Positions 3,048-61,560 of a stretch of 64,000 nt of DNA are shown piece by piece. The stretch comes from Candidatus Harrisonbacteria bacterium. GTDB lineage: Bacteria > Patescibacteriota > Minisyncoccia > UBA6257 > 02-FULL-45-10c. A program made the position numbers and the translations under genes. The notes below the pieces were generated by a model. That model was not told the origin of the DNA, searched no databases, and was given only the letters and a program-made list of their open reading frames with translations. The DNA lies in assembly GCA_016214655.1 (NCBI GenBank), contig JACROC010000006.1, forward strand, positions 21,377-85,376. Reading direction: 5' to 3'. Within the stretch, counting starts at the first letter, position 1, and each line of letters begins with the position of its first letter.

Positions 3048-4052
3048 ATGGCGCAAAAAAAGAAAGCATTGATTACCGGCATTACCGGACAAGACGGCTC
3101 TTATATGGCTGATTTTTTGCTGGCAAAGGGATATGAAGTGCATGGATTGGTAAGGCGCTCCTCAAGTTTTAATACCGGAAGAATTGATCATTTGTATGGC
3201 GGGACAGTGCAGGAGACGAAGGATTTTTTTATGCACTACGGCGATCTTACCGATACGAATTCACTGATTCATATTATTGATAAATGCCGTCCGGATGAGG
3301 TGTATCATTTTGGCGCTCAGAGCCACGTGCGCATCAGTTTTGATATTCCGGAATCTACTGCGCAAATTACCGGCGTATCTACCCTCAAGCTTCTGGAAGC
3401 GCTTCGTATTGTAAGTCCGAAAACAAAATTTTATCAGGCATCTTCTAGCGAAATGTTCGGTAAAGCAAGAGAGATACCCCAGAAAGAGACAACCCCGTTT
3501 TATCCCCGCAGTCCGTACGGCATTGCGAAAGTTTTTGCATACTGGACCGCAGTGAATTACCGGGAAGCGTACGGAATGTTTGCTTGCAACGGAATTCTGT
3601 TTAACCATGAATCGCCGCGCCGCGGTGAGAATTTCGTAACGCGGAAGATTACCACTGGTATTGCGAAAATTTTAGCCGGCAAACAAAAGAAAATTTATTT
3701 GGGAAATCTTGATGCCAAAAGGGATTGGGGATATGCCCCCGAATATATGGATGCTGCCTGGCGCATGCTTCAGCAGCCGGAGCCCGACGATTATGTTATC
3801 GCAACCGGTGAAACGCATACAGTGCGGGAATTTGTGGAGGAAGCGTTCCGTGTAGCGGGTATTGCGGATTGGAAGAATTATATTGAAGTTGATCCTAGAT
3901 ATTATCGTCCTGCGGAAGTTGATGTGCTGATTGGCGACGCCACTAAAGCAAAGCAGAAATTGGGATGGGAGCCGAAAGTAAAATTCAAGGAATTAGCGGA
4001 AATCATGGTGAAAGCTGATTGTAAAAAGCAAGGTATTGAGCTGAAGTCATGA
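3048..4052 (+). CDS. gmd: GDP-mannose 4,6-dehydratase
   Basis: [46 protein letters not shown]... classic Gmd N-terminus. Catalytic SSSEMFG / YGIAK motifs present. ATG at 3048 (the listed start at 3030 is TTG). Confidence 0.9.
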
Positions 4053-5251
4053 GAAAGATCGGATATCAAATCGGCGTTGGGTGCGCTGATATCAGTAAAA
4101 AAGAAAAAGAATATGTAAAAGACGTGTTGGAGCACGAGCGTCTTTCCTACGGGCCTTACACAAAGAAATTTGAAGAAGAATTCGCAAGAGCTCATGGGTG
4201 CAGATATGCCATTTTTTTGAATAGCGGCACTAGCGCGCTTCGGATTGCGGTAGCCGCTTTGAAAGAGATTGAGGGCTGGAAAGATGGGGATGAGGTATTG
4301 TGCCCCGCAGTTACCTTTGTTGCTTCTTCAAATGTGATTATTATGAACGGCTTAAAGCCGGTGTTTGTGGACGTTGATCCGCGGACATACAATATTGATC
4401 CGCGAAAGATTGAAGAGGAAATTACCAAGAAGACCCGTGCGATTATGGCGGTTAATTTGTTTGGACAGCCGGCGGATATGGATCCGATCTTAAAGATTGC
4501 TAAAAAACACAAGCTGAAAATTATTGAGGATTCCTGCGAAACAATGTTTGTGAAATACAAAGGTAGGCCGGCGGGTTCTTTCGGAGATATCAGCTGTTTT
4601 TCAACATATGTTGCGCATTTATTGGTAACTGGAGTAGGCGGATTTTCCTGCACGAGCAATCCAAAATACGCGGAAGTGATGAAGAGTTTGGCGAATCACG
4701 GCCGGGACGGGATTTATCTGCATATTGATGACGATAAAAATTTGAACAAACAGGGTCTATTTCAGGTAGTGTCCCGGCGATTCCATTTTATCCGCCTTGG
4801 TTATAGTTTTAGGGCGACCGAAATGGAAGCAGCTCTGGGTATAGGTCAGATGGAGCGGAAGGACCAGATTTTAGGGGCAAGGAAAAAGAATGCGGCGTAT
4901 TTGCTGAAAAAATTAAAGCCGCTTGCACAATATCTCCAGCTCCCGTGGCATCCCGGGCGGGTGGAACATTCATTTATGATGTTTCCGATTGTGGTGAAGC
5001 GGGGCGTTGGTATAAAAAAGCAAGACCTGGTGATGTACTTGGAAGAGCATAATGTGGAGACGCGCGACATGCTCCCGCTTTTAAGCCAGCCGGTGTATAA
5101 AAAATTATTCGGCGATATTGAAAACCAATATCCGGTGGCGAAATGGGTAAATGGTAATGGATTTTATATTGGCTGTCATCAAAAACTGACCAAGAAAGAA
5201 ATGGATTATATGGTTGCCGTTTTTGAAGATTTCTTTAAAAAACGAGTATGA
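4049..5251 (+). CDS. DegT/DnrJ/EryC1-family PLP enzyme, ColD-like (GDP-4-keto-6-deoxy-D-mannose 3-dehydratase-like)
   Basis: DegT-fold sequence. At the position where aminotransferases carry the Schiff-base Lys (SFHxxK...GEGG) this protein has ...[19 protein letters not shown]..., i.e. His instead of Lys, as in ColD (remembered as ...TFSSFYSHHIATMEGG...). The C-terminus NGFYIGCHQ resembles ColD GLFVGNHQ. Translationally coupled to gmd (ATGA overlap). Confidence 0.6.
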
Positions 5252-39447: not shown

Positions 39448-40176
39448 ATGGATACTGAAAATCAGAAGCCACAAAGTAGTGGCAATAATCAAAATATATT
39501 TCTTCCAGCCAGCATTTTGATAGCCGCCGTTTTAATTTCCGGTTCGTTGATTTACAGCACCGGCAAGAAAGCCGCTCCAAGCCAGCTGGGCGCCAATACC
39601 GGGGAAGTGGTGGCCGGCGTAACGACTGGGAAGGAATTGGAGTTGACCAGCGAGGATGTAGTTTTGGGCGATTTGAATGCGCCGGTGACGGTGGTGGAAT
39701 ACGGAGATTTTCAGTGTCCTTTTTGCGGCCGTTTTTATTCCACAACCGAAAATCAAATCAGAGAAAATTATGTGAAATCCAATAAGGTTAAGTTTGTGTA
39801 TCGGCACTTCGCTTTCCTCGGACCGGAATCCCGGGTGGCGGCTAATGCGGCGGAATGCGCCAAGGATCAGGGAAAGTTTTGGGCGTATCATGATTCGCTG
39901 TACGATACAGAAATTAAAGATGGCGAAGAGCATAATGGAAATTTGAATCGCGATCTATTTTTATCTTTGGCCAAGGATCTTAGTCTGAATGAGAATGATT
40001 TTACCGCTTGTTTGGATAGTAATAAATATGATGAAAAAGTTCAGAAAGATTATGTAGGCGCTCAAGCGCTGGGAGTCCGGGCTACGCCGACCATTTTTGT
40101 TGATGACAAGAAAGTAGAGGGCGCATTGCCTTATGAACAATTTAAATTGCTGATTGATCAAGAATTATCAAAATAG
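39448..40176 (+). CDS. DsbA-like thiol:disulfide oxidoreductase (thioredoxin fold, membrane-anchored)
   Basis: N-terminal TM anchor. CxxC active site GDFQCPFCGRF. DsbA_FrnE-like length. Confidence 0.65.
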   Translation: MDTENQKPQSSGNNQNIFLPASILIAAVLISGSLIYSTGKKAAPSQLGANTGEVVAGVTTGKELELTSEDVVLGDLNAPVTVVEYGDFQCPFCGRFYSTTENQIRENYVKSNKVKFVYRHFAFLGPESRVAANAAECAKDQGKFWAYHDSLYDTEIKDGEEHNGNLNRDLFLSLAKDLSLNENDFTACLDSNKYDEKVQKDYVGAQALGVRATPTIFVDDKKVEGALPYEQFKLLIDQELSK

Positions 40177-40202
40177 TTTGTGGTATAATCTAATTAAGTA
40201 AT

Positions 40203-40442
40203 ATGGCGAAAAACATCACAATTTACTCCACTCCGACTTGCGTTTATTGCAAAATGGCGAAAGAATTTTTTAAGAAAAATAACGTGCAATATACGGAGCA
40301 CAATGTTGCCGAGGATGAAAAGGCCAGAGAAGAAATGGTGGAAAAATCTCATCAGCTGGGCGTGCCGGTGATTGATATTGACGGCGAGGTGCATGTCGGA
40401 TTCAACCGGTCAGAGTTGGAAAGGGCGTTAGGGTTGAAATAG
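40203..40442 (+). CDS. glutaredoxin / NrdH-like redoxin
   Basis: 79 aa, ITIYSTPTCVYCKMAKEFFKK (CxxC in the glutaredoxin context). Confidence 0.7.
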   Translation: MAKNITIYSTPTCVYCKMAKEFFKKNNVQYTEHNVAEDEKAREEMVEKSHQLGVPVIDIDGEVHVGFNRSELERALGLK

Positions 40443-40489
40443 CTTTTATTTAAAGCTGATTTACCAAGTTGTCGTAGAGAAACTACGGA

Positions 40490-40533
40490 GGCGTCAAAAG
40501 ATTAGTGTCCCGCCTTGCGGGACTTTTGACGCC
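40490..40533 (+). promoter_or_regulatory. GC-rich nested hairpin in the trxB leader
   Basis: ggcgtcaaaag ... cttttgacgcc outer stem enclosing gtcccgc-ctt-gcgggac inner stem. GC content is far above the local average. Confidence 0.35.
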
Positions 40534-40564
40534 GAGGCGTAGCGGGCTTGCGCCGCTGGAGCGC

Positions 40565-40580
40565 GAGAACCGCGGTTCTC
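40565..40580. promoter_or_regulatory. perfect 16-bp palindrome GAGAACCGCGGTTCTC about 33 bp upstream of the trxB start; candidate operator
   Basis: Exact inverted repeat read from the sequence (gagaaccg / cggttctc). Confidence 0.35.
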
Positions 40581-40612
40581 ATAGACAATTTGGTGAAGCA
40601 GCCTCTCTTTGT

Positions 40613-41539
40613 ATGTATGATTTAGTTATTGTGGGCGGCGGTCCTGGCGGTGTGGCAGCCGGCGTTTATGCGGCCAGGAAGAAACTTAATACTGTAGTTG
40701 TTGCGGAAAATTTCGGCGGCCAGTCGGCAGTCTCTGCCGACATCCAGAATTGGATCGGAACCAAATCCGTTTCCGGTTTTGATTTGGCGAAAAATCTGGA
40801 AGAGCATTTGCGCGCTCAGCAAGATTTGGAAATCGTTGACGGTGATCTCGTAACTAAAGTTGAAAAAGCCGACGGCGGTTTTAAAGTTTCTACCCGCGGC
40901 GGAAAATTATTGGATACTAAAACCATTTTGGTTGCTTCCGGCAGCCGGCACCGGCGGCTGGGTGTTCCCGGAGAAGACAGGTTAGATGGCAAAGGGGTTG
41001 TCTGGTGTTCCACCTGCGATGCGCCATTATTCGGCGGTAAAACGGTGGCGGTTGTTGGCGCCGGTAATGCCGGTTTGGAAGCGGTCAGGGATTCGCTGGC
41101 CTATGCTTCAAAAGTATATTTAATCGTGCGAGGTGAGGTTATCAAAGGAGATCCGCAGACCTTAGAGGAAATTAAAAAAGATTCCCGCCTGGAAATTATG
41201 TATTTGGCGGAGACGCAAGAAATACTTGGGGATAAATTTGTAACCGGACTAAAGTATTTGGATAAAAAAGACAATCAAGTTAAGGAATTAAAGGTTGACG
41301 GAGTTTTTGTGGAGATCGGCGCTGTGCCGAATGTTGAATTTCTCGGTGATTTAGTCAAAAAAGACCAGTACAATGCGATTATTGTTGATCACACTACCCA
41401 GCAGACATCCCAATTGGGGATTTGGGCTGCCGGTGACGTCACTTCGCTTCTATATAGGCAAAATAATATTTCCGCTGGCGACGCCGTTAAGGCAGTGCTG
41501 AACATTAACGATTATTTGAGCAAGATAAATAGAAGTTAG
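40613..41539 (+). CDS. trxB: thioredoxin-disulfide reductase
   Basis: MYDLVIVGGGPGGVAAGVYAARK (FAD GxGxxG), redox-active CSTCD (CxxC), second Rossmann VAVVGAGNAGLEAV. ATG at 40613. Confidence 0.8.
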   Translation: MYDLVIVGGGPGGVAAGVYAARKKLNTVVVAENFGGQSAVSADIQNWIGTKSVSGFDLAKNLEEHLRAQQDLEIVDGDLVTKVEKADGGFKVSTRGGKLLDTKTILVASGSRHRRLGVPGEDRLDGKGVVWCSTCDAPLFGGKTVAVVGAGNAGLEAVRDSLAYASKVYLIVRGEVIKGDPQTLEEIKKDSRLEIMYLAETQEILGDKFVTGLKYLDKKDNQVKELKVDGVFVEIGAVPNVEFLGDLVKKDQYNAIIVDHTTQQTSQLGIWAAGDVTSLLYRQNNISAGDAVKAVLNINDYLSKINRS

Positions 41540-59295: not shown

Positions 59296-60162
59296 ATGGC
59301 AGAGTTGCACGAAAATAAATTAAAATTTTTAGAGGAGATGGCGAATAAGATCCGCCAGGATATTATTTCTTCTTTAGTAGAAGCAAAATCCGGGCATTCT
59401 GCCGGTCCTTTGGGGATGGCGGATATTTTTGCCGCGCTTTATTTTCATATTTTAAATCATGACCCGAAAAATCCGGCTTGGCCGGATCGCGATCGGGTGG
59501 TGGTTTCTAATGGCCATATTTGCCCAGTGCTTTATGCGACGCTAGCTAATGCTAATTATTTTCCAGTGGAGGAATTGATGACTTTAAGGAAAATAAATTC
59601 ACGTCTACAGGGCCATCCTCATCGCAATTCATTGCCGGGGCTGGAGACAACTTCCGGTCCGCTTGGTTCCGGAATTTCACAATCAATTGGCATGGCGTTA
59701 GCGGCCAGATTAGATAAAAAGAAATATCGGATCTATTGTCTTACTTCTGACGGTGAGCATCAGGAGGGAAATACCTGGGAAGCGGTTATGTTTGCGGGCA
59801 AGCAAAAATCCAAGCTCAATAATTTAACCGTGATTATGGACCGGAATAATATCCAAATTGACGGTTTCACGGAGGAAGTGATGCCGCTGGAGCCGCTTCG
59901 CCAAAAATATGAAGTTTTTGGCTGGCATGTCATTGATGTGAGCGGCCATGACATTGCGGAATTTGTTTCCGCGGTTAATGAGGCGAAGGCGATTTATGAA
60001 AAGCCGACCATGATTATCGCCCATACCATACCCGGCAAAGGGGTGAGTTTTATGGAGAATGATTATGTTTGGCATGGCAAGCCGCCAAATCCGGAAGAAG
60101 CGAAAGCGGCTTTATTGGAATTAAGGACGCTTGGCGGACAGATTAAGTCAGAACACGAATAG
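59296..60162 (+). CDS. tkt: transketolase, N-terminal (TPP-binding) subunit of a split enzyme
   Basis: SGHSAGPLGMADIFAALYFHILNHDP...DRVVVSNGHICPVLYATL...GSGISQSIGMALAARL...LTSDGEHQEGNTWEA. Confidence 0.85.
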   Translation: MAELHENKLKFLEEMANKIRQDIISSLVEAKSGHSAGPLGMADIFAALYFHILNHDPKNPAWPDRDRVVVSNGHICPVLYATLANANYFPVEELMTLRKINSRLQGHPHRNSLPGLETTSGPLGSGISQSIGMALAARLDKKKYRIYCLTSDGEHQEGNTWEAVMFAGKQKSKLNNLTVIMDRNNIQIDGFTEEVMPLEPLRQKYEVFGWHVIDVSGHDIAEFVSAVNEAKAIYEKPTMIIAHTIPGKGVSFMENDYVWHGKPPNPEEAKAALLELRTLGGQIKSEHE

Positions 60163-60231
60163 CGAATTTGTTATAATTGTAATTAGCAGTGAAAGGTCGC
60201 TGATAATAATTAATGATAAAAATTTATACAT

Positions 60232-60480
60232 ATGATGCAAGGTGAACATGGTAAGTGGCATTGGTCTTGTTGCCTGAGGCCGGCCTTGGGAATGCTTCTC
60301 TGGCTTGCCGGGGCAGCAGCTTTAGCATTGGCTTGGTGGGCGGTCTGGAGGCGGGAATTGGTGTGGGGTCTTGAGCCGCTGGCCTGGTACTGGAATGCCT
60401 TAATCCTTGGAGTTTTGGCATTAGGTTGCAAGGGACACGGTAGCGGACATTGTGGTACTTGTATGCCAGAATCTAAATAA
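60232..60480. other. GC-rich, G+T-skewed ~250-bp island between the two transketolase genes (compositional anomaly; coding status unclear)
   Basis: Top strand is dominated by G and T with few A (ggccttggg, ggcttgccgggg, ggcttggtgggcggtctggaggcggg...). ORFs open in several frames on both strands. The + ORF has no RBS and gives a Trp/Ala/Leu/Gly-rich product. Confidence 0.5.
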
Positions 60481-60546
60481 TAGAGAAAATTCTCGAGAAT
60501 TTTCACTGTGGCTCCGCTTTGCGGGGCTACCAGAAAGTTTTTGAGC

Positions 60547-61560
60547 ATGCTTAATTCCAACGCAAAAATTAATTCTAAAATATTTGATGCCGATATTGAG
60601 TATCGGCCGACTCGCGATGGTTATGGCGAAGGTTTGGTGATTGCCGGCGAACAAGATCCAAATGTGGTAGTTTTATGCGCCGATCTTACCGAATCCACCC
60701 GCTCCGAAGGATTTGCTAAAAAATTTCCGGAAAGATTTTTTGAGGTGGGCGTGGCAGAGCAGAATCTGGCAACCATTGCTTCCGGGCTTGGTGTCAGCGG
60801 CAAGATTCCTTTTATTTCTTCTTACGCAACTTTTTCTCCGGGAAGAAATTGGGAGCAAATCCGCACTACGATTTCTTACAATGATTCCAATGTGAAAATT
60901 GCCGGCGCCCATGCGGGAATTTCTGTCGGTCCGGATGGCGCAACGCATCAAGCGATAGAAGATATTGCAACTATGCGGGTGATGGCAAACATGAAGGTGA
61001 TTGTTCCTTGTGATGCGGTCGAAGCAAAAAAGGCGACCATGGCGGCGGCAAAAATCTGGGGTCCGGTTTACTTGCGTTTCGGCCGGGAAAAAATGCCAGT
61101 TTTTACAACCGAAGAAACACCATTTATTCCCGGGAAGGCGGAAATTTTCTGGGAATCTACCGGGAAAAAAAGCCGCGCCAAAAAACCGCAAGTTGTGATA
61201 GTCGGCTGCGGTTCGCTGGTTCATTATGCGTTGTTGGCCGCCAAAGAACTGGAAGAAGAGGGAATCGGAACCATAGTAATAAACAGTCACACTATCAAGC
61301 CCCTAGATGAAAAAACTATTTTAACAGCCGCAGAAGATTGCGGAGCGGTAGTGACGGTGGAAGAACATCAGGTGTTGGGCGGGCTTGGTGGGGCGGTAGC
61401 GGAATTGCTCGCCAAAAAATTGCCGATCCCCATGGAATTTATCGGAATGCAGAATGTTTTTGGCGAATCTGGCCCGCCCAAAGAATTGATAGAGAAGTAT
61501 GGAATGGGAGTGGAAGATATCAAGGCGGCGGTGAAAAAGGTTTTGAAAAGAAGAAAATAA
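60547..61560 (+). CDS. tkt: transketolase, C-terminal (pyrimidine-binding plus C-domain) subunit
   Basis: GEGLVIAGEQDPNVVVLCADLTESTRS...FFEVGVAEQNLATIASGLGVSGKIPFISSYATF. ATG at 60547. Confidence 0.85.
   Translation: MLNSNAKINSKIFDADIEYRPTRDGYGEGLVIAGEQDPNVVVLCADLTESTRSEGFAKKFPERFFEVGVAEQNLATIASGLGVSGKIPFISSYATFSPGRNWEQIRTTISYNDSNVKIAGAHAGISVGPDGATHQAIEDIATMRVMANMKVIVPCDAVEAKKATMAAAKIWGPVYLRFGREKMPVFTTEETPFIPGKAEIFWESTGKKSRAKKPQVVIVGCGSLVHYALLAAKELEEEGIGTIVINSHTIKPLDEKTILTAAEDCGAVVTVEEHQVLGGLGGAVAELLAKKLPIPMEFIGMQNVFGESGPPKELIEKYGMGVEDIKAAVKKVLKRRK

Follow-up and report, generated by a model that had tools for sequence, protein, structure and literature searches.

Split transketolases are normally encoded by two halves that are adjacent to each other or overlap. 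Among small membrane proteins, MerF comprises about 80 aa with two transmembrane (TM) helices and carries cysteine pairs at the start of helix 1 and in the C-terminal tail. Here, we describe a locus of Candidatus Harrisonbacteria (Parcubacteria, Candidate Phyla Radiation, CPR), contained in a 64-kb stretch of DNA that was analysed as a whole and is referred to as the window, in which the genes for the two halves of a transketolase are separated by a compact expression module. It is likely that this module consists of a coding gene for a Cys/His-rich membrane protein that is equipped with its own promoter, a leader motif and an RNA element at its 3′ side.

The small gene between the transketolase halves

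The locus contains the following genes, the coordinates being those of the window:

59296..60162, + strand: tktN, 288 aa, thiamine-diphosphate-binding N-terminal half of transketolase (PF00456 Transketolase_N, E 8e-61)
60232..60480, + strand: small open reading frame (ORF), 82 aa, predicted two-pass Cys/His/Trp-rich membrane protein (homologues, synteny, selection, AF2 and hydropathy)
60547..61560, + strand: tktC, 337 aa, pyrimidine-binding and C-terminal domains of transketolase (PF02779 Transket_pyr and PF02780 Transketolase_C)

An initial annotation of this interval had described the transketolase halves as split and separated, which is borne out by a measured gap of 384 nt between tktN and tktC. 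The tktN product is 100% identical to the NCBI entry 'MAG: transketolase [Candidatus Harrisonbacteria bacterium]'. For tktC the start is the ATG at 60547 and not the upstream GTG at 60508; in tblastn searches against relatives, the alignments start at residue 1 or 2 of the product of this ATG at almost all loci.

Comparison with relatives leaves us highly confident that the core of the interval encodes a protein that is conserved and maintained by purifying selection. The 82-aa ORF, which is followed by a second in-frame stop (TAG, 60481–60483), has 19 database homologues with identities from 100% to 40%, the identical one being the NCBI entry 'hypothetical protein HZB99_03460 [Candidatus Harrisonbacteria bacterium]'; an exact-sequence look-up of the window protein returned no record. 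A profile search of 1.84 billion representatives retrieved 76 family clusters at 50% identity. Frame, start and stop are kept, and among 18 codon-aligned relatives the mean non-synonymous divergence (pN, 0.33) lies far below the mean synonymous divergence (pS, 0.77), the latter indicating that synonymous sites are saturated. This relation of pN < pS holds in 153/153 pairs, and variability is 0.27, 0.21 and 0.45 at codon positions 1, 2 and 3, respectively. The family alignment further demonstrates that amino-acid motifs are kept although the DNA is saturated. The initial annotation had leaned towards a non-coding nature of the segment and had itself named third-codon-position variation in relatives as the finding that would speak against this; relatives carry the same segment with exactly this variation, and the non-coding view is abandoned.

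We give almost no credence to the idea that the GC-rich core is a structured non-coding RNA (ncRNA) with the ORF as a mere by-product of its composition. Such an RNA would be in keeping with the folding of the + strand of 60163–60546, which is better than that of shuffled sequences (z = −4.0, compared to z = +0.2 for the − strand), and with the openness of several frames, with the antisense strand in 21/39 relatives remaining open along ≥90% of the ORF. However, no Rfam match to the core was obtained even at E ≤ 10, relatives differ mostly at third codon positions with pN much lower than pS, the protein motifs persist in spite of the saturated DNA, and the structure detectable by covariance model is confined to the 3′ spacer. 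The earlier suggestion of a structured ncRNA therefore fails for the core, with its missing Rfam match and its coding periodicity, but it anticipated the RNA structure found in the 3′ spacer (60485–60545).

The ORFs that are open in the interval on both strands measure 82 and 39 aa on the + strand and 116 and 65 aa on the − strand. Hence, the multi-frame openness noted initially is real, but the conclusion drawn from it, that none of these frames is coding, does not apply to the 82-aa ORF, which is under purifying selection. The antisense 116-aa ORF, which would extend through the RNA element into tktC, was rejected as a real gene, as it is interrupted by stops in 30/39 unique relatives. Periodicity alone cannot exclude this ORF because it shares third positions with the sense frame.

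The compositional anomaly of the interval has an ordinary cause, a small membrane-protein gene that gives GC-rich, A-poor and multi-frame-open DNA in a low-GC genome. In sliding 221-nt windows, the core (60250–60470) proved GC-rich and G/T-skewed as initially described, with a GC content of 0.566 versus 0.419 for the window and a G+T content of 0.66, both within the top 0.1%. Its A content of 0.149 versus 0.28 falls into the lowest 0.02%, although 'almost A-free' was an overstatement for a sequence with 15% A. This unusual G/T-rich, A-poor and GC-rich composition follows from the Leu/Gly/Ala/Trp/Cys-rich sequence of the product. The GC content at third codon positions (GC3) of the small ORF tracks that of the flanking host genes in every genome, within a range of 0.33 to 0.71 (0.51 in the window, compared to 0.46 for the flanking genes), and therefore the GC excess sits at codon positions 1 and 2, to which the enrichment is confined, because the Leu/Gly/Ala/Trp/Cys-rich composition fixes these positions.

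The recurring GGCTTGG/CTGG units reported initially do not form an array. Tandem repeats Finder (TRF) at a minimum score of 30 gave no rows for the interval, and a repeat search returned only three short two-copy families (12–21-nt matches), such as TGGCTTGCCGGG / TGGCTTGGTGGG, which in the frame of the small ORF encode Trp-Leu-Ala-Gly and Trp-Leu-Gly-Gly; with no tandem repeat found, the proposal of a degenerate one is dropped. The other strongly GC-rich stretches of the window (40461–40941) are located inside a thioredoxin-reductase-like gene. This gene region belongs to a thiol-redox cluster (window 39448–41539) encoding DsbA-like (CPFC), glutaredoxin-like (CVYC) and thioredoxin-reductase-like proteins.

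The predicted membrane protein and its family

The ORF of the window codes for 9 Trp and 5 Cys. Its product starts with the N-terminal tail HGKWHWSCC, followed by TM1 (approximately residues 19–39), an RRE loop, TM2 (LEPLAWYWNALILGVLALG) and the C-terminal tail CKGHGSGHCGTCMPESK, with which the ORF ends as stated initially; the peptide ELVWGLEPLAWYWNALILGVLALGCK is also part of the product. Two classes of copies were distinguished by their heads. Class A is defined by the head H-x-K-W-H-W-x-C-C, and class B by the head H-L-x-K-C-W-L-W-K together with the tail D-C-x-x-C-x-x-C. In the family alignments, the class-A head extends to H-x-K-W-H-W-x-C-C-W-x-P and is followed by a hydrophobic helix, a short basic loop, the conserved second helix GLEPLAWYWNALVLGVLALG and a tail with C-x-x-C. 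The second helix is nearly invariant (G-L-E-P-L-A-W-Y-W-N-A-L-V-L-G-V-L-A-L-G), and this polar-studded helix (E-P...W-Y-W-N) probably serves oligomerisation or the binding of a partner.

AlphaFold2 (AF2), supplied with the family alignment, models a helical hairpin (H9–41 and H48–67) with a predicted local distance difference test (pLDDT) score of 64.5, and the hydropathy profile agrees with a two-helix hairpin. The 82-aa product is thus predicted to be a helical hairpin in the membrane. Across 87 members, Lys and Arg residues average 5.7 in the two tails versus 0.8 in the loop, and therefore the positive-inside rule would place both tails in the cytoplasm (N-in/C-in). The tails of the same members contain on average 1.6 Cys at the N-terminus and 3.2 Cys at the C-terminus, with His, Met and Gly also concentrated there; at least four tail Cys are present in 64/87 members, and some members possess metallothionein-like tails. 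A candidate site would be composed of CC and CxxC in class A and of C and CxxCxxC in class B, plus histidines. The biochemical activity may tentatively be placed in cytoplasm-facing metal or thiol binding at the membrane surface, although we rate this as somewhat less than an even chance. Among the explanations offered initially, the 'genuine tiny metal-binding membrane peptide' is the one that the evidence supports, its metal/thiol site being a putative one.

As judged from the searches performed, this is an uncharacterised small protein family with no Pfam, NCBIfam or PDB family. Pfam and NCBIfam scans assigned the window protein to 0 families and gave only isolated single matches with E values of 0.004 or weaker for the 87 members. 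A profile search of the PDB reached a best E of 0.17, with only SERCA helices at E > 0.1, and Foldseek against the PDB returned only generic, PsbZ-like two-helix hairpins (best E 3.1). In many members of both classes the last residue before the stop is Met (...GGM, ...KEM, ...PRQM); the window copy ends in ...PESK.

A scan of 185,579 species genomes yielded 23 loci, and a metagenome scan added 61 loci. Nearly all of the 23 species loci are labelled as Patescibacteria lineages (Harrisonbacteria, Paceibacter, Kaiserbacteria, Giovannonibacteria and others), and the small-protein family appears so far only in Patescibacteria (Parcubacteria/CPR). Gene callers often miss it. Members at L092 (~3460–3725) and L093 (~3805–4085) were uncalled in the source annotation, so that the spacers looked 'empty', and the family is probably under-annotated and larger than the 76 clusters found.

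Wherever flanks were available, class-A copies lie between tktN and tktC, usually in an operon of the order His_Phos_1 - rpe - tktN - small gene - tktC - (M50) - pfkB, and this synteny holds across relatives whose transketolase proteins are only 62–91% identical. Class-B copies are found in other, unrelated surroundings, and some genomes carry one in addition to class A (L013/L021, L009/L022); some of these paralogues outside the transketolase context carry an ordinary terminator at their 3′ side. Within the 64-kb window, no paralogue of the small ORF was found. In one Harrisonbacteria relative (L092), a Trp_repressor-family gene (PF01371, 1908–2357) is located between rpe and tktN, and an MjaI-type restriction-modification pair follows directly 3′ of tktC.

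In Parcubacteria, genes for small membrane proteins are repeatedly encountered at the junction between tktN and tktC, as seen from the sequences of the relatives. Genes for DUF5671 (PF18920) membrane proteins occupy it in L093 (3400–3786), L095 (3354–3683) and L100 (2956–3915), and the junction of L093 holds both the DUF5671 gene and a Cys-rich family member. Homology between DUF5671 and the small family was considered and rejected, with an hhalign probability of 1%. Among the tktN relatives sampled, the halves are directly adjacent only in L094, where the junction is empty and measures 123 nt, and in L098 tktC is not the next gene after tktN. That unrelated small membrane proteins have settled at this site repeatedly may point to some connection of transketolase with the membrane.

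One form of such a link would be that the split transketolase has the small protein as a third subunit, which anchors it to the membrane or helps its assembly, and the strict synteny of class A across these diverged transketolases as well as the unrelated two-helix DUF5671 in the same slot of other Parcubacteria would fit this role. We regard it as very unlikely, however, as the small gene has a putative promoter of its own, a terminator-like end and spacers of 44–280 nt around it, which leaves no tight coupling, paralogues exist elsewhere, and the junction is empty in L094 and dissolved in L098.

We consider it still less probable that the transketolase genes flank a remnant of foreign or mobile DNA or a cassette resembling type I toxin-antitoxin systems. 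The unit is self-contained (promoter, ORF and 3′ palindrome), second copies exist in the same genomes (L013/L021 and L009/L022), and MITE-like hairpins are inserted in the same spacers of some relatives. On the other hand, GC3 has ameliorated to each host, the position is stable over deep divergence, no repeat flanks were found, and no conserved antisense promoter or RNA is evident. Phage-borne copies are likewise absent, the exact 19-mer scan of viral contigs giving 2 chance matches without an ORF. Type I toxins are typically short (<60 aa) and single-helix, which the 82-aa two-helix product with its Cys/His motifs does not resemble. With GC3 following each host and synteny conserved, the initially proposed foreign DNA remnant finds no footing, and we retain a resident gene for a Cys/His-rich membrane protein.

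Putative promoter, leader motif and the 3′ RNA element

The non-coding parts of the module are as follows:

60169..60177, + strand: extended −10 box TGtTATAAT, 7 nt past the tktN stop (conserved in relatives)
60192..60199, + strand: leader motif AAAGGTCG, an A-run with an invariant GGTCG (conserved in relatives)
60200..60231, + strand: A/T-rich leader devoid of a Shine-Dalgarno (SD) sequence, of the same character in all relatives
60485..60504, + strand: P1, perfect palindrome GAAAATTCTCGAGAATTTTC with the hairpin GAAAAUUC-UCGA-GAAUUUUC (repeat search, pairing counts)
60508..60530, + strand: inner GC-rich hairpin GUGGCUCCGC-UUU-GCGGGGCUAC (covariation)
60492..60545, + strand: P2, outer stem of CUCGAGAAUUUUC (60492–60504) and GAAAGUUUUUGAG (60533–60545) around the inner hairpin (minimum free energy, MFE, and covariation)

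The pattern TG[n]TATA[A/C]T is present in nearly all class-A upstream spacers and in several of class B, and the box of the window is a putative internal extended −10 promoter of the small gene. Mostly 15–18 nt past the −10 box and 19–55 nt 5′ of the ATG, nearly all class-A loci contain the leader motif. Its GGTCG occurs in 36/36 unique class-A upstream regions and 13/31 of class B, for a chance expectation of 0.08 per 110 nt, and AAAGGTCG is found a single time in the 64-kb window. The composite of −10 box, 12–20 nt and A[AC]GGTCG has 40 occurrences in approximately 370 kb of loci, all of which (40/40) lie just 5′ of a small ORF and none elsewhere; it occurs once in the window. From this distribution the leader motif AAAGGUCG appears to be gene-specific and is a candidate leader or operator.

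An automated promoter and terminator scan called neither the conserved −10 box nor the 3′ element. The promoter that it proposed, TTAGCA-16-AATAAT at 60183–60210, was not adopted, as it is not the element conserved in relatives. A pairing between leader and 3′ element was also rejected, since by eye the transcript of the window lacks a CGACC complement to GGTCG. In three relatives (L005 2442–2620, L009 and L019), the spacer between tktN and the small gene contains a GC-rich long hairpin of about 170 nt (CTGCCTACCGGCACCGGAG...) 5′ of the −10 box; this insert is MITE-like and gave no Rfam match.

The initial annotation had correctly seen that the small ORF has no ribosome binding site (RBS). Its absence carries no weight against coding because the genome hardly uses SD sequences: an SD-like 4-mer precedes 14/57 long ORFs of the window versus a background of 21%, and translation initiation in this organism appears to proceed largely without SD pairing.

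Turning to the 3′ side, the element at 60485–60545 is, with good confidence, a selected RNA structure, as judged from covariation among relatives. The P1 left arm begins 4 nt past the TAA stop in the window. Among 29 unique elements, 21 have a P1 left arm starting −4 to +7 nt from the stop codon, and in 21/29 the CGAGAA start lies at most 16 nt from it. In 27 elements, 95.4% of the alignment cells are paired in P1, with four pairs doubly changed. The inner hairpin differs in sequence in every genome and keeps its pairing, 9/9 modelled pairs being changed on both sides and 97.8% of cells being paired. In the P2 outer stem, 92% are paired, with exchanges of the U:G/U:A/C:G and C:G/U:A type; its 60533–60545 arm GAAAGTTTTTGAG is complementary, with G:U pairs, to CTCGAGAATTTTC. 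P1 and P2 are mutually exclusive as both use GAGAAUUUUC, and for the window the MFE is −30.1 kcal/mol in the P2 form compared to −23.9 kcal/mol with P1 enforced. The G:U pairs of P1 are functional on the + strand only, which together with the strand-specific fold z-score places the structure on the + strand RNA.

A covariance model (R1), built from 12 sequences and with loci matched at E < 1e-3, detects 26 loci; the strong matches are all on the + strand and directly 3′ of the small ORF, and the window has a match only at 60483–60548 (76.9 bits). Likewise, the 3′ palindrome occurs a single time in the 64-kb window. A cmscan of 59900–60800 against Rfam at E ≤ 10 returned only snoZ159 (E = 4.5), the whole 64-kb window had 0 matches at the gathering threshold, and five related loci gave none. 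Leader motif and P1 are also retained by the class-B copies L021, L022 and L054, which have no transketolase gene nearby; this assigns the elements to the small gene instead of the transketolase. In L013 (3244–3520) and L020 (~3244–3540), an insert of about 280 nt separates the stop of the small ORF from the 3′ element. It possesses terminal inverted repeats (GGAATCTATTTT... / ...AAAATAGATTCC), forms one very long hairpin of MITE-like appearance and has no Rfam match; the whole spacers of both loci fold at −142 and −151 kcal/mol.

Which function could such an element have? P2 includes a U-run and stops 1 nt short of the tktC ATG, and in most loci the distance from the element to the tktC start is only 0–40 nt. 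As this leaves no room for a tktC promoter, transcription of tktC has to pass through the 3′ element in most loci. The small gene would be transcribed from its own promoter and by read-through from tktN. Since the P1 left arm lies near the stop codon, a terminating ribosome would mask it: by covering GAAAAUUC it would free GAGAAUUUUC, which could then close the long stem with GAAAGUUUUUGAG that ends in the U-run and would cover the tktC start region. If no ribosome occupies the stop codon, P1 could fold, which would leave the tktC start region open. Since tktC is reached by transcription through it, the element most likely sets or modulates the amount of transcript, or of translatable start region, that reaches tktC, be it as a leaky or switchable terminator, as a processing or stabilising hairpin or possibly as a protein-binding site. 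From its sequence it looks like a terminator/antiterminator-like or processing element, and the logic of P1 and P2 would be that of a translation-coupled attenuator. That it modulates tktC expression in a translation-dependent manner is, to our mind, a tentative proposal with roughly one chance in three. A more far-reaching version, an undescribed cis-regulatory device of CPR bacteria in which translation, insertion or metal/thiol loading of the mini-protein tunes tktC and AAAGGUCG binds a trans-acting factor, is a speculation that we consider doubtful. If true, the cell's only pentose-glycolysis route would be coupled to envelope or metal status.

If the switch is taken as the whole purpose of the locus, the small ORF would mainly be a regulatory upstream ORF, a leader peptide or a SecM/MifM-type 'monitoring substrate', whose translation, membrane insertion or metal/thiol status gates tktC via P1 and P2 and whose protein has no job of its own. 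Both mutually exclusive pairings covary, the P1 left arm is positioned in 21/29 elements where a terminating ribosome could mask it, P2 with its U-run abuts the tktC start, and the predicted membrane protein contains 9 Trp and 5 Cys. Yet all 82 aa, helix 2 above all, are under strong purifying selection, paralogues reside outside any transketolase context, some of them with an ordinary terminator 3′, and the family includes members with neither motif. In addition, no known arrest motif is present and the downstream gene codes for a cytosolic enzyme instead of a translocon component. We thus hold a purely regulatory ORF to be unlikely and continue to favour a gene for a functional membrane protein with associated expression elements.

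Several observations weigh against this reading as well. The AF2 confidence is only moderate, with pLDDT < 50 in the tails, and 5/87 members lack tail Cys. A degenerate class-A variant from Giovannonibacteria (L030, L090, L091) has neither any cysteines nor the 3′ element; it sits in the transketolase slot with AGGTCG immediately 3′ of the tktN stop and keeps WYWNALVLGVL. Therefore the part that can least be spared is helix 2 and not the Cys site, which by this sequence comparison the family can do without. As for the RNA, the P1 left arm is absent in four elements (L001, L017, L047, L055), and the U-run, which is present past P2 in most of 27 aligned elements, is missing from GC-rich relatives, for example L007 and L010; both together disfavour termination as a universal role. 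As DNA, the P1 sequence of the window is perfectly palindromic and could possibly be the site of a DNA-binding protein. Finally, the pairing of 92.2% of cells in the model alignment, compared to 75.6% for shuffled and ≤61% for slid alignments, comes from an alignment that had been fitted to the model and is thus biased towards the modelled structure.

Comparison with described systems

The kinds of component involved are already familiar, namely a small Cys-rich membrane protein, an internal promoter and a terminator/antiterminator-like hairpin. Newly defined are a Cys/His-rich two-helix family that is stably resident in a core metabolic operon of minimal-metabolism organisms, and two gene-specific non-coding motifs with a covarying two-state RNA element that is absent from Rfam. 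To our knowledge, gene regulation in the CPR has hardly been explored, and a conserved cis element preceding an essential gene of the pentose-phosphate pathway would be a useful entry point to it.

When compared to other split transketolases, the flanking genes are the standard halves (PF00456 and PF02779 with PF02780), and the difference lies in the third, putatively separately promoted gene and the structured RNA between them. DUF5671 proteins occupy the same junction in other Parcubacteria, and two short ones are hydrophobic at each end; in contrast to the small family they are without cysteines, and the leader motif and the 3′ palindrome were not seen at these loci.

With MerF and MerT, the small protein shares a length of about 80 aa, two TM helices, adjacent cysteines where helix 1 begins, another Cys pair in the C-terminal tail and the predicted cytoplasmic location of both tails, all of which is a match in architecture only. 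The tail pair is CxxC and not CC, no Mer family appeared in the Pfam scan of the 87 members and no MerF chain in the PDB search. A mer operon context (merR, merP, merA) is missing here, the neighbours being pentose-phosphate genes (checked were His_Phos_1, Ribul_P_3_epim, the transketolase halves, Peptidase_M50 and PfkB).

The 3′ element resembles intrinsic terminators and stabilising or RNase III hairpins in its GC-rich stem-loop of variable sequence and kept pairing, in its A-rich and U-rich flanking arms and in its location just 3′ of a stop codon; the stem is an interrupted helix of >20 bp in total. It differs in that its arms are sequence-conserved across genomes with saturated synonymous sites, that it is specific to one gene family, and that complete termination is not a possible outcome with a tktC lacking its own promoter.

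The leader-peptide attenuators of the trp and his type and the arrest-peptide monitors SecM, MifM and VemP also come close. The ORF of the present locus differs from the attenuator leaders, which are short and poorly conserved with only their regulatory codons preserved, as it is long, conserved over its full length and has paralogues elsewhere, and neither a regulatory codon run nor a known arrest motif is present. Arrest peptides combine a C-terminal arrest motif with an export or insertion factor encoded 3′, a position that is taken here by tktC and thus by half of a metabolic enzyme. What the locus shares with these systems, as read from the gene sequences, is an ORF whose stop lies next to the first arm of two hairpins that exclude each other, within reach of the ribosome at the stop, and a second structure with a U-run and/or covering the downstream start region.

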